From assembly GCA_964597445.1 (NCBI GenBank), contig CAZQXO010000001.1, positions 46,978 through 110,977 of the forward strand: a DNA stretch of 64,000 bases, written 5' to 3'. A model generated the notes under the pieces. It had not been told where the DNA came from. It ran no database searches and saw only the letters and a list, made by a program, of their open reading frames with translations. This document shows, piece after piece, positions 1-44,955 of the stretch (position 1 is its first letter; every line of letters starts with the position of its first letter). The stretch is from an uncultured Bifidobacteriaceae bacterium. GTDB lineage: Bacteria > Actinomycetota > Actinomycetes > S36-B12. A program made the position numbers and the translations under genes.

Positions 1-1
1 C

Positions 2-487
2 ATCGCCCCGCCGCGGCTCGATCACGTGCTCGTCACGGCCGAGGAGGTGGGTGACTCGGCGCAGTTCTACATGGATGTCTTCGGCTTCCGTCTCACCGAG
101 CAACTGGTCGACGGGGCCGGGCACCAGCTGGCCGTGTGGATGGAGACATCCCACCGCCCGCACGACCTCGCGATCGTGTCAGGGCCCAACGGTGGCCTGC
201 ATCACTTCGCGTGGTGGCTCGATGACTGGGACCATGTGCGCCGATCAGCCGACATCCTCGCCTACAACGGCATCCAGATCGATGTGGGTCCGACCCGGCA
301 TGGCATCACGCGTGGGAACACGATCTACTTCTTCGATCCGCTGGGCACCCGCAACGAGGTGTTCACGGGCGGATACCGACCGGATCCGGACTTCCCGACC
401 ATCACCTGGACCGAGGACAACATCGGTCGTGCCGTCTTCTACTACGAGGGTGAAGTGAACCAGCGCTTCATGACGGTGCACACGTGA
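2..487 (+). CDS. Extradiol ring-cleavage dioxygenase (catechol 2,3-dioxygenase type), C-terminal part; 5' end outside window
   Basis: The frame is open from nt 2 (IAPPRLDHVLVTAEEV...) to TGA 485-487, and ORF-track 26..487 is its in-frame remainder. VOC/extradiol motifs present: GLHHFAWW, GPTRHGITRGNTIYFFDP, NQRFMTVH. It aligns by eye along its whole length with residues ~150-303 of the next ORF. Confidence 0.85.
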   Translation: MAPPRLDHVLVTAEEVGDSAQFYMDVFGFRLTEQLVDGAGHQLAVWMETSHRPHDLAIVSGPNGGLHHFAWWLDDWDHVRRSADILAYNGIQIDVGPTRHGITRGNTIYFFDPLGTRNEVFTGGYRPDPDFPTITWTEDNIGRAVFYYEGEVNQRFMTVHT

Positions 488-1395
488 GCATCCTGCGACT
501 GTCCCATGTCGAGATCCGGGTTCCGGACCTCGAGCTCGCCACGGCCTACTACACCGAGGTCGTCGGAATGTACGAGACCGCACGCGAGCCTGATCGCGTC
601 TTCCTGAAGTGCTGGGACGAGCACCAGCATCACTCCCTCATCCTGACCTTCGCGCCGACCTACGGGCTGAACCACATGGGCTGGAAGGTGTCGGAGGCCT
701 CGGACCTCGATCACTACGCCGAGCGCCTCCGGGCGACGGGCGTCGACGTCGTGCGGTTCGCAGCGGGGGAGATCGGTCCGGGCCACGGAGAGGCGATTCG
801 CTTCACCATGCCGAGCGGGCATGTCATGGAGCTCGTCCACGGGATGGAGCAGGTCGGGAACCTGCTGCCGAACACCAATCCTCCGCCGAAGCCGCTCGGT
901 CTCGTGGGATTCGCTCCACCGCGTCTCGACCACATTTTCCTCACGTGTGAGGACGTTGCGGGGAACACGCGCTTTCTGACCGATGTCCTCGACTTCCACC
1001 TCACTGAGCAGGTCCTCGGCGACGATGGCTTCCAGATGGCGACGTGGCTGGAGCACTCCCATCACAGCCACGACATCGCGCTCGTCACCGGTCAGGATCG
1101 AGGGCTTCACCACTTCGCCTGGTGGGTCGACGACTGGAACCAGATCCGCGAGGTGGCCGATGTCCTGGCCTACCACGGCGTCCGCATCGAGACGAACCCC
1201 ACGCGGCACGGCGCGACCCGCGGGCACTGCATCTACTTCTTCGATCCGGCGGGCAACCGCAATGAGGCCTTCACGGGCGGGTACTGGGTCGATCCCGAGG
1301 AGCCACCCGTGACCTGGACGGAGGCCGAGATGGGGCGGGCGATCTTCTACTACGACGGCGTCGTGAACCAGCGGTTCCTGACGGTCCACAGCTGA
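484..1395 (+). CDS. Catechol 2,3-dioxygenase-like extradiol dioxygenase (two-domain VOC protein)
   Basis: 303-aa ORF with two VOC halves (LSHVEIRV...HMGWKV and LDHIFLT...LHHFAWW). The C-terminus GATRGHCIYFFDPAGNRNE...NQRFLTVHS is typical of catechol 2,3-dioxygenases. The GTG start overlaps the upstream stop (GTGA 484-487). Confidence 0.88.
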   Translation: MSILRLSHVEIRVPDLELATAYYTEVVGMYETAREPDRVFLKCWDEHQHHSLILTFAPTYGLNHMGWKVSEASDLDHYAERLRATGVDVVRFAAGEIGPGHGEAIRFTMPSGHVMELVHGMEQVGNLLPNTNPPPKPLGLVGFAPPRLDHIFLTCEDVAGNTRFLTDVLDFHLTEQVLGDDGFQMATWLEHSHHSHDIALVTGQDRGLHHFAWWVDDWNQIREVADVLAYHGVRIETNPTRHGATRGHCIYFFDPAGNRNEAFTGGYWVDPEEPPVTWTEAEMGRAIFYYDGVVNQRFLTVHS

Positions 1396-1403
1396 CGGAG
1401 GCG

Positions 1404-2522
1404 ATGATGACCACATCCGAGCTCCAGCCGCCACCGGCCCTGCCGCGCACCGAGCGACCTGATGCACCGGCCTACCTGCAGCGCTACCTCGATCGCGAGG
1501 GCCGCGGTGGCAAGCCGCATGAGGTGGTGGATCGGGGAGGCGATGGCGAGACGCCGCTGTACCTGAGGCGCTTCCGGGACCGTCGCAGCGGGGCCAATCC
1601 GCTCGAGGCGCCCGTTCCGGAGTGGGAGGGCGTCGATCTGGGCGTGACGCAGGCCCGTGCGCGCATCACGAAGACCAAGGAGATCGTGCCGGAGGACGCC
1701 GTCGCGGCAGGACCCTCCACGGTCACGCAGGTGCACATCATCCGTCACGGTGAGACGCAGGGGTACTCGACCGAGAGCGGACTCACCCCGCTGGGCAGCT
1801 GGCAGGCGCATCGTCGTGGGTTCGACATCAGCAAGGGTGTCCGGGAGGGCGAGCGGATCCGCATCGTGTGCGCGGAGACGAACCGGGCACGGCAGACCGC
1901 CGAGCACATCCGTCGCGGCCTGCTTGACGGGCTGACGATGTGGGGGCGCACGGCGGAGGTCTCCGAGATCGATGGCATGGAGGAGTTCCGGAACTTCCAG
2001 GTCTGGACTCCGGAGGGTCTGCGCGACGTCACAGGCGCCTTCCGGCTCTATCAGAAGGAGATGGAGAAGTACGAGCGAGTCGCCCACGGCGATCGCCCCC
2101 TGTGGCTCGTCGAGGTGGATCGGTTCTGGCGGACGCAGCAGGGCGGTGGGGATCCCATCACCTACTGGACGCAGATCCCGATGCTGTGCTTCGAGCCTCC
2201 GTCCGCAACCGTGCGTCGATTCTGGGCTGGGATCCGACGCATCCGCGAGGAGCATCCGGGTGACCGCATCATCGTGGCCACTCACTCAGGCCCGATCCGC
2301 GTGTTCGCCATGGCGGCTCACGGTTATGACCCGGGCGAGCCGTACAACACTGAAGAGGTCATCGTGAAGCTGCTGTCTGGAGACTCCGGGGCCTTCCTGG
2401 CCTACCGCAATCGGGTGTCCGAGGTTCAGGTGCCCACTCTCGACGAGCTTCCTGACTGGTGGGAGGGGCTCTCGGGAGAGGCGCTGCCACGATCCCGGCG
2501 GGAGCAGGAGGTGGGCTCATGA
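1404..2522 (+). CDS. Histidine phosphatase (phosphoglycerate-mutase-like) family protein with ~110-aa N-terminal extension
   Basis: 372-aa ORF with GGAGG just upstream of ATGATG. It has the catalytic RHG motif (VHIIRHGETQGY) and a distal His (VATHSGPIRVF). The first ~110 aa carry no motif I recognise. TGA 2520-2522 overlaps the next ATG. Confidence 0.75.
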   Translation: MMTTSELQPPPALPRTERPDAPAYLQRYLDREGRGGKPHEVVDRGGDGETPLYLRRFRDRRSGANPLEAPVPEWEGVDLGVTQARARITKTKEIVPEDAVAAGPSTVTQVHIIRHGETQGYSTESGLTPLGSWQAHRRGFDISKGVREGERIRIVCAETNRARQTAEHIRRGLLDGLTMWGRTAEVSEIDGMEEFRNFQVWTPEGLRDVTGAFRLYQKEMEKYERVAHGDRPLWLVEVDRFWRTQQGGGDPITYWTQIPMLCFEPPSATVRRFWAGIRRIREEHPGDRIIVATHSGPIRVFAMAAHGYDPGEPYNTEEVIVKLLSGDSGAFLAYRNRVSEVQVPTLDELPDWWEGLSGEALPRSRREQEVGS

Positions 2523-3598
2523 GCAGTCACATCATGTGGTTCGAGGGGTACTGGGAGGGCCTCAAGCCGGAGGTGGGGGGCAAGGCCGCAAGTCTGGGCG
2601 AGATGACGGGAGCCGGCCTGCCGGTTCCGCCGGGGTTCGCCCTCACCACTGCTGCCTACCGTGCCTCGCGAGACGCCTCCGACATCGATGCCACCCTGGC
2701 CCGGCTGCTCCATGGACTCGACACGAGCGACACCGACATGGTGTCGGACCGCTGTGGACGCATCCGACGGCACATCGCTGAGATGCCCATGGACCTGGAC
2801 GTCGAGGCGGACCTACGACAGGCCTACACCGAGCTGTGTCGCCGCAGCAGCACCGCGGATGTCCCCGTCGCCGTGCGATCGTCCGCCACGAGTGAGGACT
2901 CCCCGGATGCCTCCTTCGCCGGTGAGCACGACACGTACCTCTGGGTGCGAGGTTCGGACGCCGTCGTCGACGCCGTGCGCCGGTGCTGGGCCTCGCTCTT
3001 CACGGATCGCGCCACGTGCTACCGGGTCGAGATGGGCTACGAGCACCGTTCCGTGGAGATGAGCGTGGTCATCCAGAAGATGGTCCGCCCGGTCTCCGCG
3101 GGCGTCGCCTTCACGCTGAACCCCTCGGACGGGGATCGCTCGACGATCGCCATTGACGCGGCCTGGGGCTTCGGCGAGGGCGTGGTGTCCGGTGAGGTGA
3201 CTCCCGACAACTTCCTGGTCGACAAGGTGCTCTACGAGATCAGCCGACGGCGAGTGGCCACCAAGGAGGTCGAGTTCACGCTCAACGGAGGCGACAGCGT
3301 CGTCAAGGTACCCCTGGAGGGTGCCCGTGCCACCGACGCCTCCCTCACGGATGACCAGATCAAGGCCATCGCCAGGCTCGCCCGCACGGCCGAGCGGCAC
3401 TACGGGTGCCCCCAGGACGTCGAGTGGGCCGTCGACGCGGATCTGGCGGACGGCGAGAACATCGTGCTCCTGCAGTCGCGCCCGGAGACCGTGTGGAGCA
3501 AGAAGGCAGCCGAGAGGTCCGTGGCACCGGGGGGCACCGACATGATGGCGAGCATCGTGTCGACGCTCATGAATCCGCTCAACAGTCGCAAGTCCTAG
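2519..3598 (+). CDS. PPDK_N / ATP-grasp subunit of a split PEP-synthase-like phosphotransferase (PpsB-like)
   Basis: ORF-track gives 2459..3598; I prefer ATG 2519 (MSSHIMWFEG..., ATGA overlap with the upstream stop). Signatures present: GGKAASLGEM, VAVRSSATSEDSPDASFAGEHDTYL, VVIQKMV, GVAFTLNP, GFGEGVVSG, PQDVEWAV. The protein ends after the ATP-grasp domain, with no swivel-His and no TIM barrel. Confidence 0.8.
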   Translation: MSSHIMWFEGYWEGLKPEVGGKAASLGEMTGAGLPVPPGFALTTAAYRASRDASDIDATLARLLHGLDTSDTDMVSDRCGRIRRHIAEMPMDLDVEADLRQAYTELCRRSSTADVPVAVRSSATSEDSPDASFAGEHDTYLWVRGSDAVVDAVRRCWASLFTDRATCYRVEMGYEHRSVEMSVVIQKMVRPVSAGVAFTLNPSDGDRSTIAIDAAWGFGEGVVSGEVTPDNFLVDKVLYEISRRRVATKEVEFTLNGGDSVVKVPLEGARATDASLTDDQIKAIARLARTAERHYGCPQDVEWAVDADLADGENIVLLQSRPETVWSKKAAERSVAPGGTDMMASIVSTLMNPLNSRKS

Positions 3599-3650
3599 CA
3601 GCACGACCAGTTCCGTCCATCACCCGCAGCAGTCAAGAGAGGGAGTTCGC

Positions 3651-5459
3651 ATGGCAGATCGGTTCCCCAGCCCCTTTGAGATTCCGGCGCCTGCGGGTGC
3701 CGAGGGGTGGCAGCAGCTCTACACCTACTCGTCGCTGTTCTCCGAGGGTCGCCGTGCCTACGAGGACTCCATGTTCTGGTTCCAGGACGGCGTCCACTGG
3801 CCGACGGCCCTGCGTCCGTGGGATGCCACGCTCTTCGAGTACGCAATCACATCCCTGTCGCAGTACAACACCCGGCACCTGCAGGTGCCCCCGGCCAACG
3901 GGATCGACTTCCGGATCCTGAACGGGTACGTGTACCTCACGCCGGTGCCGGCTCCCGAGGCCGACATCGAGGGTCGAGTGGCCAACTTCATGGATCGCGC
4001 CGGGTTCTACTTCATGAACTGGAACGACCTGTACGACAAGTGGATGATCAAGATCCGGGATCTCGTCAAGGAACTCGAGACCATCGACTTCGACCCGCTC
4101 CCGGAGCTGGAGGATGCCGACGACGTCGTGAAGTCCGGCGCGGGCCTGGGGTCGGGCTGGAAGATCCAGGCGGACTACCACAAGCTGCTGGACCTGGCAC
4201 TCAAGCTCTGGCAGTACCACTTCGAGTTCCTGAACCTCGGCTATGCCGCCTACCTCGACTTCTTCGGCTTCTGCAAGCAGGCCTGGCCGAACATCCCGGA
4301 CCTCGCCATCGCGAAGATGGTGGCCGGCGTGGAAGTCGATCTCTTCCGTCCGGATGAGGAGCTGAAGCGGCTCGCGCGCATGGCCGTGGACTCAGGCGTG
4401 GCCGAGGCGTTCGCCACCGGGGATGTTGAGGCGACGTGCCAGATCCTCAAGGGAAGCGATGCCGGCAATGCGTGGATCGCCTCCTTCCAGGAGTCGGCTG
4501 AGCCGTGGTTCAACTTCTCCACCGGGTCGGGCTTCTACCACTCCGACAAGATCTGGATCGAGAACGTCGAGATCCCCTTCGAGTTCATCGGCAACTACAT
4601 CACCAAGCTCCAGAAGGGCGAGGACCTCGCACGTCCGATGGCCGCCATCCACGCGGAGCGCGATCGCATCGTCAGCGAGTACGCGGAGCTCCTTCCGACC
4701 GATGCGGATCGGGAGGCATTCCAGGGGAAGCTCGGCCTGGCGCGCGTGGTGTTCCCCTATGTCGAGAACCACAACTTCTATGTGGAGCACTGGAGCCACT
4801 CGGTCATCTGGCGCAAGATGCGCCAGCTGGGGGAGCTCTTCGTCAAGGAGGGCTTCTGGAGCGAGGCGAACGACATCTTCTTCCTCAAGCGGACCGAGGT
4901 CGAGGATGCCCTGTTCGACTACTTCCACTCGTGGGCCACGCCTGCGCCGGCAGCCGGTCCGAGCTACTGGCCCCAGGAGATCGAGCGGCGTCGCGCGATC
5001 CACTCGGCCCTGTCGGGCTGGAAGCCCACGCCCGCCATGGGCGTCCCGCCGGAGGTCATCACGGAGCCCTTCACGGTCATGCTCTGGGGGATCACGACCG
5101 AGAGTGTCGGTGCCTGGCTGGGCGGCGGCGCCGGAGAGGACGGCCAGCTCAAGGGCATGTCCGCCTCGCCGGGTGTCGTCGAGGGCCCTGCCCGGGTCAT
5201 CTTCAGCCCGGATCAGATCAGCGAGGTTCAGGAGGGCGAGATCCTCGTGGCCCCGCTGACGGCCCCGTCCTGGGCGCCGATCTTCGGCAAGATCCAGGCG
5301 ACGGTGACCGACACCGGCGGCATGATGAGCCACGCGGCCATCGTCTGTCGCGAGTACGGACTGCCGGCCGTGACCGGGACGGGATTCGCCACGTCGACGA
5401 TCAAGACCGGTGACCGGATCCGGGTCGACGGCTCCAACGGCGTGGTCACGGTCCTCTAG
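3651..5459 (+). CDS. Swivel phospho-His (PEP-utilising-enzyme mobile domain) protein with ~480-aa non-TIM N-terminal domain (PpsA-like / rifampicin-phosphotransferase-like acceptor subunit)
   Basis: 602-aa ORF with a GAGAGGGAG RBS. The C-terminal ~110 aa form the mobile domain (GVVEGPARVI, EGEILVAPLTAPSW, TDTGGMMSHAAIVCREYGLPAV) and the protein ends right after it. The N-terminal start FPSPFEIPAPAGAEGWQQLY...FWFQDGVHWP matches my unverified recollection of phenylphosphate synthase alpha-type proteins. Confidence 0.8.
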   Translation: MADRFPSPFEIPAPAGAEGWQQLYTYSSLFSEGRRAYEDSMFWFQDGVHWPTALRPWDATLFEYAITSLSQYNTRHLQVPPANGIDFRILNGYVYLTPVPAPEADIEGRVANFMDRAGFYFMNWNDLYDKWMIKIRDLVKELETIDFDPLPELEDADDVVKSGAGLGSGWKIQADYHKLLDLALKLWQYHFEFLNLGYAAYLDFFGFCKQAWPNIPDLAIAKMVAGVEVDLFRPDEELKRLARMAVDSGVAEAFATGDVEATCQILKGSDAGNAWIASFQESAEPWFNFSTGSGFYHSDKIWIENVEIPFEFIGNYITKLQKGEDLARPMAAIHAERDRIVSEYAELLPTDADREAFQGKLGLARVVFPYVENHNFYVEHWSHSVIWRKMRQLGELFVKEGFWSEANDIFFLKRTEVEDALFDYFHSWATPAPAAGPSYWPQEIERRRAIHSALSGWKPTPAMGVPPEVITEPFTVMLWGITTESVGAWLGGGAGEDGQLKGMSASPGVVEGPARVIFSPDQISEVQEGEILVAPLTAPSWAPIFGKIQATVTDTGGMMSHAAIVCREYGLPAVTGTGFATSTIKTGDRIRVDGSNGVVTVL

Positions 5460-5514
5460 GGGAGCCTCTCCGTAGAGTCCGATTCGGGACCATCGTCACA
5501 ACTTCACACGCGGT

Positions 5515-5552
5515 TCCGTCGGGCGGGACGCCACCGTTGCCCGCCCGACGGA
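5515..5552 (+). terminator. GC-rich hairpin downstream of the swivel-His gene (intrinsic-terminator-like, no U tract)
   Basis: CCGTCGGGCGGG (5516-5527) pairs perfectly with CCCGCCCGACGG (5540-5551), giving a 12-nt loop. A flanking T/A pair extends the stem to 13 bp. It lies in the 138-nt gap between the stop at 5459 and the Rieske start at 5598. Confidence 0.45.
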
Positions 5553-5597
5553 GTCCGAGCACCCTTGGATTCACCACTTTCAGGGAAGGATCTGCGA

Positions 5598-6857
5598 ATG
5601 CTGACGGTCGAGCAGAACGAGGAGCTCACCCGGGTAGGTCCGGGCACGCCCATGGGGGAGCTGCTGCGCCGGTACTGGTACCCCATCGCCTTCGAGCAGG
5701 ACTTCGATACCGTCCCCACCAAGACGGTTCGACTGCTGGGCGAGAACTGGACGCTCTTCAAGACCCCGGTCTCGGGCCGCTACGGCATCGTGGCCGAGGC
5801 CTGTCCGCATCGCAGTGCATCCCTCACCTACGGGGTCGTCCATGAGGACGGAATCCGCTGCGGCTACCACGGCTGGAAGTGGGACTTCGACGGCACCTGC
5901 CTCGAGCAGCCTGCGGAGGCCGACAACCAGAACTTCCGCGACCGGGTGAGGCAGAAGGCGGGCAAGGCGCAGGCCATGGGTGGCATGGTCTGGGTGTACG
6001 TGGGCCCCGACCCGGCGCCCGAGCTGCCCCGCTTCGACGTGTTCGTCATGGACGGGATCAAGGACTGCGGGTACTCGACGCTGCCCTGCAATTGGCTCCA
6101 GATCATGGAGAACTCGGTGGATCCGCACCACGTGGAGTGGCTGCACGGCTACTACTTCGAGTTCCTTGGACAGACGCAGGGGTTCGACGCCCCCAAGGCC
6201 TTCCAGAAGAAGCACATGAGGACCGGCTTCGAGGAGATGGAGTGGGGCATCCTCAAGCGCCGCGTCCTCGAGGGGAGCACCGAGGAGAACGACGACTGGA
6301 AGATCGGCCACCCGTTGGTGTTCCCGTTCTACATGCGCGTCGGTGGCGCCGGTATCGACCAGATGCAGATCCGCGTGCCCATCGACGACACCACGACCTG
6401 GAAGCTCTTCTACTCCAACCATGCCCCGAAGGGCGGGGAGTGGGAGCCCCAGGACCGCCCGGTGTTCTACGAGTACCTCTGGAGGGATGAGCAGGGTCGC
6501 TTCATCACCGACTACATCGAGGGCCAGGACATCATGGCCTGGGTGTCGCAAGGGCCGGTGACCGACCGTACGCAGGAGCACCTCGGTCGTTCGGACGCGG
6601 GGGTGGCGATGCTGCGGAAGATGTTCAAGGAGAACATGAAGAGGGTCCAGGACGGCGAGGACCCGATCGGCACCGTCCGGGAGAAGCACGACATCATCCC
6701 CCTGCCATGTGAACGCGACAAGTTCGGCGCGGAGCGGGAGTTCGCGGCGGCCTTCATCACCATGGGTTCCATGCGCTACAGCCCCCAGAAGCAGGCACTC
6801 CTGGATCTCCACGACCAGGCGTGGGCACGTATCGAGAAGGCGGGGGCCCGTGCCTGA
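5598..6857 (+). CDS. Rieske [2Fe-2S] non-haem-iron oxygenase, alpha3 (phthalate/KshA/carbazole-type) catalytic subunit
   Basis: I moved the start to ATG 5598 (GGGAAGGA RBS ~8 nt upstream; ORF-track gives 5565). Rieske motif: CPHRSASL...CGYHGWKW. Mononuclear Fe motif: NWLQIMENSVDPHHVEWLH. No beta-subunit gene is adjacent. Confidence 0.88.
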   Translation: MLTVEQNEELTRVGPGTPMGELLRRYWYPIAFEQDFDTVPTKTVRLLGENWTLFKTPVSGRYGIVAEACPHRSASLTYGVVHEDGIRCGYHGWKWDFDGTCLEQPAEADNQNFRDRVRQKAGKAQAMGGMVWVYVGPDPAPELPRFDVFVMDGIKDCGYSTLPCNWLQIMENSVDPHHVEWLHGYYFEFLGQTQGFDAPKAFQKKHMRTGFEEMEWGILKRRVLEGSTEENDDWKIGHPLVFPFYMRVGGAGIDQMQIRVPIDDTTTWKLFYSNHAPKGGEWEPQDRPVFYEYLWRDEQGRFITDYIEGQDIMAWVSQGPVTDRTQEHLGRSDAGVAMLRKMFKENMKRVQDGEDPIGTVREKHDIIPLPCERDKFGAEREFAAAFITMGSMRYSPQKQALLDLHDQAWARIEKAGARA

Positions 6858-6858
6858 G

Positions 6859-7110
6859 GTGGGATTGCCCCCCGATCCGCATCGGCTTCCGCCCCCGGGA
6901 GCATGGTTCGCACGCGATGCCGAGCGGCACCTGCTGGATCGGCCCCGCTTCTGCCCGATGTGCGGCGAGGGGCTCGACGCCGATGGTGGCATCAGCACGG
7001 AGTACTGGTCCGGTGATGCTCGGTGCTTCATGACGTGGTGTGGCGCCTGCGGCTGGTTCGGGGAGGTCGTGCGGTTCGACATGGTCACGATCACCGAGGT
7101 GGAGCACTGA
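6859..7110 (+). CDS. Small Cys-rich protein with two CxxCG knuckles (zinc-ribbon or rubredoxin-like), family unknown
   Basis: This is the in-frame part of ORF-track 6709..7110. GTG 6859 lies 1 nt after the Rieske stop (TGA 6855-6857). The protein is 83 aa, with FCPMCGEG and WCGACGWFG about 25 residues apart and an aromatic-rich spacer. Coding status rests on position and frame only. Confidence 0.5.
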   Translation: MGLPPDPHRLPPPGAWFARDAERHLLDRPRFCPMCGEGLDADGGISTEYWSGDARCFMTWCGACGWFGEVVRFDMVTITEVEH

Positions 7111-7775
7111 GCCTGGGCGCCGGCACCGCACGTGCGGTCGTCTTCGATTTCGGTGGGCCGGTTCTGCTGACCCCGTTCGAACTCAGGCACGTGGGGGAGC
7201 GCGACCTCGGCCTCCCTGACGGAAGTCTCGCCTGGACCGGCCCCTTCGACCCGGGGTCGGACGCGGACTGGCGAGTGTTCCAGTCCGGTGGGATGACCGA
7301 GCGCGACTACTGGGCCCGCCGCGCGGAGGAGTTCCACGTGCTGACGGGGGAGCCCGCCACGATGCCCGCGCTGTGCTCCCATCTGTACTCCGGCACCGAG
7401 GAGGAACTGGTGCGCCCGGCCGCGCGGCGTCTCATGGAGGATGCCCGAGCTGCCGGGATGCCGGTGGGCGCGCTCACGAATGACCTCACGGCGTTCCACG
7501 ACCGGGAATGGATCGACAGGATGCGCATCCTCGGGGAGTTCGACGTGCTCGTCGACGGACGCACCGAAGGCGTGATGAAGCCGGATCCCGCGGCGTACCG
7601 GCTCGTGCTGGACCGGCTCGGGGTGAGGGCCGAGGACACCGTCTTCATCGACGACCAGCCCATCAATCTGAGGGGGGCGGAGGTGGTGGGGCTCACACCT
7701 GTCCACTTGGACCCCACGGACCCCGCTCCAGGGTTTAGGTTGGCCAGGACATTACTTGGACTTCCACAGGAGTGA
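7023..7775 (+). CDS. HAD-superfamily hydrolase (subfamily IA, DxGG variant; probable phosphatase)
   Basis: Motif I variant AVVFDFGGPVL, motif II ALTND, motif IV VFIDDQ. The only canonical in-frame starts (ATG 7023, GTG 7035/7038) overlap the upstream ORF by 73-88 nt, while the conserved core begins ~7134. The start is therefore uncertain; CTG 7107 or 7113 is possible. Confidence 0.72.
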   Translation: MLHDVVWRLRLVRGGRAVRHGHDHRGGALSLGAGTARAVVFDFGGPVLLTPFELRHVGERDLGLPDGSLAWTGPFDPGSDADWRVFQSGGMTERDYWARRAEEFHVLTGEPATMPALCSHLYSGTEEELVRPAARRLMEDARAAGMPVGALTNDLTAFHDREWIDRMRILGEFDVLVDGRTEGVMKPDPAAYRLVLDRLGVRAEDTVFIDDQPINLRGAEVVGLTPVHLDPTDPAPGFRLARTLLGLPQE

Positions 7776-7778
7776 ATC

Positions 7779-9122
7779 ATGCGCGTCGCCGTCGTCGGTT
7801 CCGGTCCCTCTGGCATCTACGCGGCGGACGCCCTGGTCTCGCAGGAGGAGGTGCCCGTCGAGGTGGACATCCTCGACCGGCTCCCCGTGCCCTTCGGCCT
7901 GGTTCGCTACGGGGTCGCGCCCGACCACCTCAGCATCCGCTCGGTGCGGGACACCCTGAACAAGGTGCTCCAGAAGCCGGGGGTCCGCTTCCTCGGCAAC
8001 GTCACGGTGGGGGCGGATGTGTCCGCCGCCGATCTCCTGCGCTTCTACGACGCCGTGATCCTGACCTACGGCGCGTCGAGCGACCGTCGCCTCGGCATCC
8101 CCGGGGAGGACCTCGACGGCAGTGTCGCCGCCACGGACTTCGTCGCCTGGTACTGCGGCCATCCTGACGCCGATCGCGCTCGGTTCGAGCGGCTGATTCC
8201 CTCGGCGAGATCGGCCGTGGTCGTCGGGGTCGGCAACGTCGCGATCGATGTGACCCGGGTGCTGGGCAAGACCGTGGGGGAGCTCGATCACACGGACATG
8301 CCCCAGCACGTGCTCGACACCCTGGCCTCCTCGGGCATCACGGATGTGTACCTGCTCGGTCGACGTGGCCCAGCGCAGGCGACCTTCACGACCAAGGAGC
8401 TCAAGGAGCTGGGGGAGCTGCTCGAGGCTGACGTCATCGTCGATCCGGCGGATGTGCTCCTCGATGAGGGCAGTGCCGCGGCGGCTGCGGCCGATCGCAC
8501 CATCGCCCGCAATGTGGATGTCGTGACCGAGTGGTCCCAGCGCACCCCCGAGGGCAAGCCCCGGCGGATCCACGTGCGCTTCCTGTCCCGTCCGATCGAG
8601 TTGCGGGGCGACGGCCGGGTGAGTTCCGTCCTCGTCGAGCGCACGTGCCTGACGCCGGACGGCGGCGTCGAGGGCACAGGCGTGACGGAGGAAATCGCGG
8701 CCGACCTCGTCGTCCGCTCGGTCGGATACCGCGGCATCCAGCTCGACGGCCTGCCGTTCGATGAGCGTGGGAACGTCGTTCCCCACGTCGACGGCCGGGT
8801 GACGACCGAGGGTGCACCCGTGCCCGGGTTCTACGTCGCCGGGTGGATCAAGCGGGGCCCCACGGGGATCATCGGTACCAACAAGAAGGACGCGGTCGCC
8901 ACGGTGACCTCGCTCCTCGAGGACCACGCGGCCGGGCGGGTACCGGAGGCAGGGGAGCCGGGAGGTCTGCCCGACTACCTTGCGGCGCGGGGAGTCGACG
9001 TCGTCGAGACGTCGGGGTGGGATGCCATCGACGCTGCGGAGCGTGCCCTGGGAGCCAGCCGTGGACGCGACCGGACGACGATCCACGACCGAGACGACCT
9101 GCTCGCGGCCTCGCGCGGCTAG
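7779..9122 (+). CDS. fprA: FprA-type (adrenodoxin-reductase-like) NADPH:ferredoxin reductase
   Basis: 447 aa with an ACAGGAG RBS. Motifs: MRVAVVGSGPSGIYAA (FAD GxGxxG), LVRYGVAPDH, second dinucleotide fold VVVGVGNVAIDV, and GWIKRGPTGIIGTNK near the C-terminus. Confidence 0.87.
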   Translation: MRVAVVGSGPSGIYAADALVSQEEVPVEVDILDRLPVPFGLVRYGVAPDHLSIRSVRDTLNKVLQKPGVRFLGNVTVGADVSAADLLRFYDAVILTYGASSDRRLGIPGEDLDGSVAATDFVAWYCGHPDADRARFERLIPSARSAVVVGVGNVAIDVTRVLGKTVGELDHTDMPQHVLDTLASSGITDVYLLGRRGPAQATFTTKELKELGELLEADVIVDPADVLLDEGSAAAAAADRTIARNVDVVTEWSQRTPEGKPRRIHVRFLSRPIELRGDGRVSSVLVERTCLTPDGGVEGTGVTEEIAADLVVRSVGYRGIQLDGLPFDERGNVVPHVDGRVTTEGAPVPGFYVAGWIKRGPTGIIGTNKKDAVATVTSLLEDHAAGRVPEAGEPGGLPDYLAARGVDVVETSGWDAIDAAERALGASRGRDRTTIHDRDDLLAASRG

Positions 9123-44866: not shown

Positions 44867-44871
44867 GTACG

Positions 44872-44955
44872 TGTCCGAGGGGGGACTTGAACCCCCATGC
44901 CCCTAAGGGCACTAGCACCTCAAGCTAGCGCGTCTGCCAATTCCGCCACCCGGAC
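44872..44955 (-). tRNA. tRNA-Leu (anticodon GAG), class II with long variable arm, no encoded CCA
   Basis: The reverse complement folds by hand as follows: acceptor GTCCGGG/CTCGGAC; anticodon stem CTAGC/GCTAG with loop TTGAGGT; variable arm GCCC-TTA-GGGC; T arm GGGGG-TTCAAGT-CCCCC; discriminator A. Confidence 0.9.

Follow-up and report, generated by a model that had tools for sequence, protein, structure and literature searches.

The enzymes closest to the system considered here are the two-component phenolic dikinases, which have been described as PpsAB in anaerobic phenol degradation by Thauera, as CreHI in aerobic 4-cresol catabolism by Corynebacterium glutamicum, and as HpeHI or AcvAB in the aerobic catabolism of hydroxyphenylethanones by Rhodococcus and Sphingobium (PMC12167813, PMC9618137). 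In the published mechanism, ATP on the small subunit pyrophosphorylates a histidine, Pi and AMP leave, and the beta-phosphate is passed to the phenolic oxygen; the published traits of the family further include a crystal structure of HpeI, a model of HpeH that resembles rifampicin phosphotransferase (RPH), a pairwise identity of ~45% between H subunits and a T/SxxGGxxxH motif (PMC12167813, PMC9618137), and a Met that replaces the regulatory Thr two residues before the catalytic His has been given as a family criterion (PMC12167813). Here, we describe a dikinase gene pair and its conserved gene neighbourhood in a 64,000-nucleotide stretch of DNA (the window) from an uncultured Bifidobacteriaceae bacterium (contig CAZQXO010000001.1, positions 46,978 to 110,977). 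The two genes encode a two-component phenolic dikinase of the PpsAB/CreHI/HpeHI (AcvAB) family, and the subunits are referred to below as I and H:

2519-3598, + strand: dikinase I (beta) subunit, an ATP-grasp protein of 359 residues with a PPDK_N domain; the ATP-binding component
3651-5459, + strand: dikinase H (alpha) subunit, 602 residues, with an RPH-like helical acceptor domain, a possible linker and a swivel domain carrying His561

The pair follows the family layout of a separate ~40-kDa ATP-grasp subunit and a ~65-71-kDa swivel subunit, and is predicted to catalyse the reaction ArOH + ATP -> aryl phosphate + AMP + Pi via a phosphohistidine. Judged from its sequence, the dikinase itself is a new member of a known family; the unusual point is the set of partner enzymes encoded around it, and not the presence of the kinase.

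Both open reading frames lie where a first-pass annotation of this DNA, produced by a model from the letters and their translations, had placed them, and every motif that it quoted is present. The I subunit matches Pfam PPDK_N over residues 17-333 (E 8.9e-111) and has no second Pfam domain, whilst the sole Pfam match of H is PF00391, the mobile (swivel) domain of phosphoenolpyruvate (PEP) utilizers, at residues 527-597 (E 3.6e-25); both E-values are far beyond chance. The swivel domain contains the phospho-His motif T553-D-T-G-G-M-M-S-H561, which fits the T/SxxGGxxxH pattern and lies less than ~50 residues from the C-terminus (41 residues separate His561 from the end of the chain). The catalytic His561 is preceded directly by Ser560, and Met559 occupies the position of the regulatory Thr (His-2). 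PF02896, the PEP/pyruvate-binding TIM barrel, was not detected in I, in H, in the other operon genes or in 20 further large open reading frames of the window. The NCBIfam equivalog models for PEP synthase and for RPH cover the shared domains only and score far under their cut-offs: NF005057 reaches 350 of the required 598 bits (profile positions 5-344 of 798), TIGR01418 reaches 333 of 739.75, and the RPH model NF041857 scores 277 and 110 bits with the two proteins where 999 are required. H is matched end to end by the NCBIfam PRK08296 'hypothetical protein' models (850 bits; cut-off 650).

An AlphaFold2 model of H built on 30 homologues (mean pLDDT 82, pTM 0.82) displays a helical domain extending from residue 1 to ~460 and a beta-rich C-terminal swivel domain, and contains no alternating beta/alpha barrel. 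Residues 469-485 are modelled with low confidence (pLDDT < 50) and may form a flexible linker. When the model is compared with the PDB using Foldseek, the only matches that span the protein are the Listeria RPH structures 5fbu, 5fbt and 5hv1 (E ~1e-16 to 1e-17, with 4e-17 for 5fbu; ~630 columns, TM 0.6, 17% identity), and a PDB sequence search with H agrees with this result. Pyruvate phosphate dikinase (PPDK), PEP synthase, enzyme I and pyruvate kinase align to H over the ~119-residue swivel domain only. Because the full-span structural matches of H are to RPH alone, the acceptor site is expected in the RPH-type N-terminal domain. The first-pass annotation had arrived at much the same architecture, namely a 359-residue protein with nothing but ATP-grasp PPDK_N signatures, a swivel His ~40 residues from the end of H, no TIM barrel and hence neither PEP synthase nor PPDK activity, and an acceptor bound in the N-terminal ~480 residues of H; the Pfam scan, the low model scores and the helical RPH-like domain bear these points out.

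To place the pair within the family, reference loci were drawn from annotated plasmids. The Pps reference (L006) is the ppsA-ppsB-CBS-ppcBDAG cluster of Azoarcus sp. KH32C; the Cre reference (L005), from Rhodococcus oxybenzonivorans pRB98, encodes an IclR regulator, a P450, I, H, a short-chain dehydrogenase/reductase (SDR), a ferredoxin, a reductase, an HD phosphohydrolase and an aldehyde dehydrogenase; and the Hpe reference (L007) is the hpe locus of Rhodococcus sp. JS3073, whose I subunit is 98% identical to PDB entry 9goj and whose H subunit has S573, C580 and H581 as published for HpeH. Over its full length, the window H subunit is 55% identical to the Cre-type protein, 48% to Hpe and 47% to Pps, which reaches the level that characterised members show among themselves (~45%), and the corresponding values for I are 48%, 44% and 48%. 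The best PDB sequence match of I is 9goj_A (E 2.3e-78), which is very probably HpeI in view of its 98% identity to the I subunit encoded in the Rhodococcus hpe locus. Exhaustive searching of 1.84 billion cluster representatives with HMMER returned 743 relatives at E <= 1e-30, of which ~56 are full-length 50%-identity clusters, and a substrate is known for only three or four of these. MarK, an aromatic kinase described in 2025, belongs to the unrelated family UPF0261.

In neighbour-joining (distance-based) trees, the window H subunit and its close relatives form one clade with 100% bootstrap support. This clade is sister to the Rhodococcus Cre-type protein (85%) and lies apart from the groupings that hold the Hpe reference (55%) and the Pps reference (72%). 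With P0155 (561 residues, on a long branch and probably defective) included, as in the first bootstrap, the clade was not monophyletic, and this one sequence was left out of the final tree. The clade also contains a natural I-H fusion, P0121 (970 residues), whose residues 2-350 share 54% identity with I and whose residues 361-962 share 63% with H; the fusion reproduces the domain order of single-chain RPH and is independent evidence that I and H act together. These comparisons uphold the likening, in the first-pass annotation, of the pair to the subunits of phenylphosphate synthase and to the domain logic of RPH (47-48% identity to Pps orthologues, and RPH as the sole full-length structural match), and the 47-55% identity of H to the family supports its proposal of an AMP- and Pi-forming phosphotransferase for a hydroxylated small molecule. 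Its question of whether the pair groups with the proteins of anaerobes is answered by the separate clade. Its surprise at meeting such a kinase in an aerobic actinobacterial oxygenase cluster was misplaced, as CreHI and HpeHI are already aerobic and actinobacterial (PMC12167813, PMC9618137).

The window begins inside the operon, and relatives were therefore used to view the operon as a whole; the window H sequence itself had no exact match in the assembly index, and relatives 82-93% identical to it took its place. Four loci with H subunits 82-88% identical to that of the window (L001-L004) contain two divergent operons. The first encodes a Rieske-type ferredoxin, a 4-oxalocrotonate tautomerase, two enzymes of the FAA-hydrolase family (a decarboxylase and a hydratase), DmpG, DmpF, an IclR regulator and a ~215-230-residue protein without a known family; the second encodes two catechol 2,3-dioxygenases (C23Os), a histidine phosphatase, I, H, a LigXa-type Rieske oxygenase, a ~85-residue protein with four Cys, a HAD hydrolase and an FprA-like reductase. 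The Rieske-type ferredoxin gene of the relatives, being part of the divergent operon, falls outside the window. Within the window, the operon comprises, around the dikinase genes:

1-487, + strand: first of two tandem catechol 2,3-dioxygenases (C23O_1), 3' part, cut by the window start; it shares 94% identity with residues ~142-302 of the L001 orthologue, and its stop codon overlaps the start of the gene that follows
484-1395, + strand: second catechol 2,3-dioxygenase (C23O_2), type I extradiol, 303 residues (TIGR03211 366.9 bits, cut-off 320)
1404-2522, + strand: histidine-phosphatase superfamily protein, 372 residues, with an RHG catalytic motif (Pfam His_Phos_1 E 5.4e-14)
5511-5557, + strand: GC-rich stem-loop (stem of 14-17 bp) within the 138-nt spacer that separates the H and Rieske oxygenase genes (RNA fold of 5460-5597)
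5598-6857, + strand: Rieske non-haem iron oxygenase, alpha subunit only, 419 residues, phthalate/LigXa family (ATG at 5598; the reading frame opens with TTG at 5565)
6850-7110, + strand: small 4-Cys protein, ~86 residues, with an 8-nt overlap between its start and the stop of the Rieske oxygenase gene
7023-7775, + strand: HAD-superfamily hydrolase, start codon uncertain (192-215 residues in relatives; Pfam Hydrolase E 4.2e-15)
7779-9122, + strand: adrenodoxin-reductase/FprA-like NAD(P)H flavoprotein, 447 residues, 3 nt after the HAD gene (Pfam Pyr_redox_2 and NAD_binding_9)

A scan of one genome per species isolated 80 loci with H identities of 65-93%, nearly all of them from Actinomycetota. 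The cultured carriers include Longivirga aurantiaca, six Nocardioides isolates (five named species and strain PD653-B2), Micromonospora globispora, Nostocoides sp. Soil756 and Blastococcus jejuensis, and the module is also found in Nanopelagicales-type metagenome-assembled genomes (MAGs) and in Acidimicrobiia. Counting for each neighbour the loci with the gene over those with enough flanking DNA, the I subunit is present in 75/76, the histidine phosphatase upstream of the dikinase in 73/75, the first dioxygenase in 70/71, the second in 73/74, the Rieske oxygenase downstream of the dikinase in 71/72 and the 4-Cys protein in 69/70; the HAD hydrolase (62 of 68 loci) and a His-rich protein (62 of 69) follow. 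The order of the module is fixed in about 70 species. The genes are also packed tightly: overlaps join the two C23O genes, the phosphatase and I genes (the ATG of I overlaps the phosphatase stop by 4 nt, ATGA, 2519-2522) and the Rieske and 4-Cys genes, with a gap of 3 nt between the HAD and FprA-like genes. Because the same neighbours recur across the 80 loci and their gene ends overlap or abut, the dikinase is likely to be functionally coupled to them. In the literature on dikinases or phenylphosphate synthases in connection with Rieske oxygenases, meta-cleavage, Nocardioides or aryl phosphates, we found no description of this module, and the gene context appears to be undescribed.

Among the partner enzymes, the Rieske oxygenase is matched by Pfam Rieske (E 8.8e-16) and LigXa_C (E 7.6e-15), with VanA_C falling under its cut-off. 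Its nearest PDB entries are 7fjl, 7fhr and 9ina (E 5e-48 to 1e-37), which we take to be Comamonas phthalate and isophthalate dioxygenases that bind aromatic dianions; 7fhr was deposited as a putative phthalate 4,5-dioxygenase alpha subunit. The FprA-like flavoprotein is the probable reductase of the oxygenase in this lineage. Its gene is present in most Nanopelagicales-type loci, was not detected in any Nocardioides-type locus and lies outside the universally conserved core. The histidine phosphatase is a candidate aryl-phosphate phosphatase and the HAD hydrolase a second candidate phosphatase, the latter with a sub-threshold match to TIGR02247 (epoxide-hydrolase N-terminal-like phosphatase; 79.9 bits, cut-off 125.4). 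The histidine phosphatase also has an N-terminal extension of ~100 residues (1404-1760) that matches no family and carries an LPRTERxDAPAYL motif conserved in 17 relatives.

The dioxygenases indicate where the pathway may lead. The L001 orthologue of the truncated first enzyme scores 371.8 bits against TIGR03211 catechol_2_3 (cut-off 320), and the motifs LDH, HD, LHH, TRHG, IYFFDP and TRNE are present in the window protein. For the second enzyme, the only one of the two that was compared with the PDB, the best matches are the monocyclic C23Os 5znh (E 9e-77) and 1mpy, and the Fe-ligand and catalytic motifs are complete. In Nocardioides-type loci, the module is followed by a hydratase, DmpF, DmpG, a decarboxylase, a tautomerase and an aldehyde dehydrogenase, which together make up a full dehydrogenative meta pathway. 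As both dioxygenases pass the TIGR03211 cut-off and the Nocardioides-type loci carry this pathway, we infer that catechol or a 4-substituted catechol is the compound whose ring is cleaved. Pyrogallol, whose cleavage would yield 2-hydroxymuconate directly, was considered as a general substrate and set aside, given that the Nocardioides-type loci end their full meta pathway with an aldehyde dehydrogenase.

Taken together, we consider a route in which the dikinase acts first and is followed by oxygenation of the aryl phosphate, dephosphorylation to a catechol and meta-cleavage to be the probable overall explanation of the module. By homology, the I subunit would bind ATP and His561 of H would attack the beta-phosphate, so that the gamma-phosphate is freed as Pi and AMP departs. 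The phosphorylated swivel domain would then return onto the helical RPH-like domain of H and pass its phosphate to the hydroxyl of the bound phenolic, for a net reaction of ArOH + ATP + H2O -> ArO-PO3 + AMP + Pi. The conserved operon suggests that the aryl phosphate, and not the free phenol, would be the substrate of the Rieske oxygenase, which would be fed by the Rieske ferredoxin and the FprA-type reductase and would introduce a second oxygen function ortho to the phosphate ester, either through ring hydroxylation of phenyl or cresyl phosphate or, with a guaiacol-type 2-methoxyphenyl phosphate, through O-demethylation. Removal of the phosphate by the histidine phosphatase, the HAD hydrolase or both would leave catechol or a 4-substituted derivative, whose ring the two tandem C23Os would cleave, and the meta-pathway genes would lead to pyruvate and acetyl-CoA. 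The phosphate would give the oxygenase a handle and at the same time trap a scarce, membrane-permeant phenol in the cell. In its complete form, as a previously unrecognised aerobic phenolic route in which a Cre-related dikinase, a Rieske oxygenase acting on the aryl phosphate and phosphatases supply catechol for meta-cleavage, at a cost of two ATP equivalents that would buy high-affinity trapping uptake, the proposal is a tentative one that we hold to be a serious possibility.

Several features of the described pathways are in keeping with these steps. The HpeCBA carboxylase takes phosphorylated intermediates only, and HpeD dephosphorylates afterwards with a preference for the carboxylated product. 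HpeHI has a sub-micromolar Km, from which its authors propose the scavenging or trapping of scarce permeant phenols, an idea that by analogy fits oligotrophic freshwater actinobacteria; AcvAB phosphorylates guaiacol. In the Cre pathway, phosphate reportedly acts as the directing group for the P450 CreJ, which like HpeCBA takes phosphorylated intermediates only, and is taken off afterwards by CreD (a result we attribute to Du et al., PNAS 2017). To our knowledge, no Rieske oxygenase has been reported to use a phosphate ester as a handle.

The Cre system is the nearest to the window module in both sequence and logic. CreHI of C. glutamicum, for which L005 stands in, is likewise an aerobic actinobacterial enzyme of two subunits, ATP-grasp and swivel-His, encoded in the order I then H, and L005 is the closest sequence relative among the references (H 55%, I 48%). 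The sequence of kinase, oxygenase acting on the phosphorylated substrate and then phosphatase is the same scheme that we propose here. In the window module, however, an alpha-only Rieske oxygenase stands in the place of the P450 CreJ with CreEF, and His_Phos_1 and HAD phosphatases in that of the HD-domain CreD; no P450 or HD phosphohydrolase homologue was found in the window or in the 80 related loci. The alcohol and aldehyde dehydrogenases of the Cre pathway (CreG, CreC) also have no counterpart in the core module: weak SDR matches (26-36% identity) occur in three of the 80 loci, and an aldehyde dehydrogenase is present in some loci, only at the distal end of the meta-pathway genes. The window module is instead tied to C23Os and a meta pathway, and its chemistry is expected at the ring or an ortho-methoxy group, whereas Cre oxidises a para-alkyl side chain.

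HpeHI (Rhodococcus rhodochrous GD02) and AcvAB (Sphingobium SYK-6) belong to the same family, with the same predicted mechanism. The crystal structure of HpeI is the best solved match of the window I subunit (9goj, very probably HpeI), the model of the window H subunit agrees with that published for HpeH, and the Hpe operon, like that of the window, holds a HAD-type phosphatase. The window module differs in having Ser in place of the HpeH Cys before the catalytic His, and in having no Hpe-type biotin-dependent carboxylase (HpeCBA/AcvCDE), CoA ligase or hydrolase; a biotin-carboxylase homologue was found in one of the 80 loci as a weak match (41% identity) and none in the window. In PpsABC (Thauera/Aromatoleum, with L006 as stand-in), the two dikinase subunits measure ~70 and ~40 kDa, have the domains of the window pair and likewise carry Ser-His in the swivel motif. 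The CBS-domain PpsC and the UbiD-type phenylphosphate carboxylase (PpcABCD), both of which adjoin the pair in L006, are absent from the window and from the gene lists of its relatives, and the context is O2-dependent (Rieske and extradiol dioxygenases) where that of Pps is anaerobic. RPH has the same three functional domains and swivel mechanism, but the window enzyme is split into two chains, is only ~17% identical to it and is found in a catabolic context. PEP synthase and PPDK share the ATP-grasp domain, the phospho-His swivel domain and AMP-forming dikinase chemistry; the window pair differs from them in the missing TIM barrel, the Met in place of the regulatory Thr and a different acceptor domain.

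A further parallel is found in the aniline dioxygenase system (AtdA1-A5/TdnQTA1A2B), an analogy of pathway logic between unrelated proteins: a heteroatom is tagged at the expense of ATP, a Rieske oxygenase converts only the tagged compound to catechol, a hydrolase removes the tag, and meta or ortho cleavage follows. The tag is a gamma-glutamyl group placed on N by a glutamine-synthetase-like enzyme, whereas that of the window system would be a phosphate placed on O by the dikinase. This documented example of tagging, dioxygenation and release, with a tag-removing hydrolase ahead of catechol cleavage, lends itself to the foremost rival explanation. Here the kinase would be the same, but the Rieske enzyme would be a true dioxygenase that attacks the ring at the carbon carrying the phosphate and at the adjacent one (1,2- or 'ipso' dioxygenation), and the resulting gem-hydroxy phosphate ester would lose its phosphate spontaneously to give the catechol, leaving the phosphatases as safety valves through which surplus aryl phosphate is recycled. 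The closest oxygenase relatives with solved structures, if taken as genuine cis-dihydroxylating phthalate-family dioxygenases, would suit this chemistry, as would the finding that no cis-dihydrodiol dehydrogenase is encoded in the module, and the odd HAD motif described below and the presence of two hydrolases are better suited to accessory or proof-reading roles than to one obligatory step. Weighing on the other side, in the Cre and Hpe pathways the phosphate is still in place after the second step, and a dedicated phosphatase takes it off; the phosphatase gene of the module is translationally coupled to the kinase gene and nearly universal (73/75), suggesting a stoichiometric step; and the Rieske family in question, with its LigXa_C match and VanA_C under cut-off, includes mono-oxygenases and O-demethylases. 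We regard ipso-dioxygenation as unlikely overall, although sequence alone does not separate it from the pathway that we favour.

Considerably less probable is an acceptor other than a simple phenol, either an aromatic amine, which would give a phosphoamidate as in the anaerobic activation of aniline, or a hydroxylated antibiotic or signal molecule, in which case the pair would act in detoxification or resistance as RPH does. The H fold is that of RPH, and formation of phenylphosphoamidate has been reported for Pps-like enzymes from Desulfatiglans anilini. The identity to RPH is nevertheless ~17% as against 47-55% to the phenol-specific enzymes, the characterised two-component members all act on phenolic hydroxyls, and the pair is embedded, in about 70 species, in a catechol meta-cleavage regulon with an IclR regulator, a catabolic context rather than one of resistance. 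A chance placement beside the oxygenase and dioxygenase genes, with the dikinase taking part in some unrelated process, is very improbable: the link to the neighbours does rest on genomics, and a distant homologue (L090, 65% identity) has a different neighbourhood, but co-occurrence in 70+ of 72 loci, with fixed order and overlapping ends, extends across Nanopelagicales-type MAGs, Nocardioides, Micromonospora, Blastococcus, Nostocoides, Longivirga and Acidimicrobiia. Finally, a split PEP synthase or PPDK that uses a separately encoded PEP-binding domain, as the 'pyruvate, water dikinase' labels given to relatives by automatic annotation and the shared ATP-grasp and swivel domains might suggest, is effectively refuted by the lack of PF02896 in the pair, the operon and the other large window reading frames scanned, by PEP synthase model scores far under cut-off and by the helical, RPH-like character of the 460-residue N-terminal domain of H.

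Several observations weigh against the pathway of phosphorylation, aryl-phosphate oxygenation and dephosphorylation favoured here. The functions throughout the clade, the acceptor included, are predicted from homology and gene context, and the Cre and Pps reference sequences are themselves orthologues assigned by gene context rather than the characterised proteins. Residues 188-263 of the Rieske oxygenase, its substrate-binding part, do not align with the solved relatives, and for this reason the type of reaction (mono-oxygenation, demethylation or dioxygenation) cannot be read from the sequence, nor could phosphate-binding residues be mapped onto phthalate dioxygenase. Two phosphatases are conserved where the model needs one. 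Motif I of the HAD hydrolase, V-F-D-F-G-G (about 7140-7160), has no general acid/base Asp at the nucleophile+2 position, and this DxGG sequence is conserved in 15 relatives; it may be suited to good leaving groups such as phenolates, or may point to a role other than that of a phosphatase. A 2-hydroxymuconic-semialdehyde dehydrogenase was not found within the 10 kb scanned upstream in window-type loci, or in the 64-kb window. In a comparison with five Nocardioides-type loci (L054, L064, L052, L078 and L079), which have an aldehyde dehydrogenase, the Nanopelagicales-type loci (L001-L004 and window 1-9122) retain the tautomerase and decarboxylase without one. Either the dehydrogenase is encoded at another site of the genome or a different compound is cleaved; for the Nanopelagicales-type loci, a substrate of the pyrogallol type is possible and would explain the missing dehydrogenase. 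Lastly, the conserved His-rich and 4-Cys proteins have no place in the model.

The His-rich protein is soluble, measures ~215-245 residues and is encoded in L001 at 5058-5795 (- strand), just upstream of window base 1, between the IclR regulator and the first dioxygenase. It displays the motif YHLxVxPGxxLxxHHAxHxGxxLAxxH, gave no Pfam or NCBIfam match at permissive thresholds and, from its sequence, may bind metal. The 4-Cys protein has CPxC...WCxxC and a C-terminal ExEH conserved in 17 relatives; Pfam and NCBIfam searches at permissive thresholds gave only sub-threshold zinc-ribbon matches, and the protein may assist the oxygenase as a zinc-ribbon or rubredoxin-like accessory. The spacer between the H and Rieske genes (5460-5597) folds with -58.4 kcal/mol (z = -2.2), and the stem of its hairpin is kept, with a variable loop, in the three closest relatives (L011, L001 and L026). 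No U-tract follows the hairpin, and a consensus fold of H-Rieske spacers gave no structure from an input in which several spacers included coding sequence; the element may act in intercistronic attenuation, in processing or in stabilising the mRNA.

Beyond the operon, window positions 9119-64000 are ordinary chromosomal (housekeeping) DNA. The genes encode a sucrase/ferredoxin-like protein, a topoisomerase IV/gyrase-A-like protein, a PfkB kinase, thymidine kinase, aconitase, DXP synthase, a FadB-like enzyme, a thiolase, an acyl-ACP-type desaturase, CorA, a class I Cys-type tRNA synthetase homologue, phosphoglucose isomerase, B12-dependent methionine synthase and an Indigoidine_A-family protein that is probably a pseudouridine-5'-phosphate glycosidase, with a tRNA-Leu(GAG) at 44871-44955. 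The downstream flank is syntenic with relatives, as seen in the Suc_Fer-like and topoisomerase-IV/gyrase-A-like genes, in PfkB in L001, and in the Indigoidine_A-family gene, a phosphodiesterase and DUF3071 in L002-L004; the closest genome fragment, the Nanopelagicales MAG L011, shows 75-83% DNA identity. As the flanks are housekeeping in nature and syntenic with relatives, the operon is part of the core chromosome, and not an island, in this freshwater Nanopelagicales-type lineage; the soil genera that carry it include Nocardioides and Micromonospora. Outside the clade, a plasmid of Haladaptatus salinisoli (L010, 2416-11948) carries a dikinase pair (41% identity) beside a Rieske alpha/beta dioxygenase, alcohol and aldehyde dehydrogenases and a metallophosphoesterase, an association of kinase and Rieske enzyme that seems to have arisen independently and with a different Rieske family.

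The conserved module is apparently a new, uncharacterised variant of 'phosphorylate first' phenol catabolism that is widespread in freshwater and soil Actinomycetota. Its clade is well supported and covers at least ~70 species, with a fixed and different set of partner enzymes. Its carriers in culture, among them Longivirga aurantiaca, several Nocardioides species, Micromonospora globispora and Blastococcus jejuensis, make the proposal directly testable, and the system could serve lignin-stream biocatalysis. If the proposal is true, the use of phosphate to direct and trap a substrate, known from side-chain oxidation (Cre) and carboxylation (Hpe), would reach oxygenation of the aromatic ring itself, and aryl phosphates would constitute a new substrate class for Rieske oxygenases. 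It would also explain how abundant oligotrophic freshwater actinobacteria use dilute phenolics derived from plants and humic matter.

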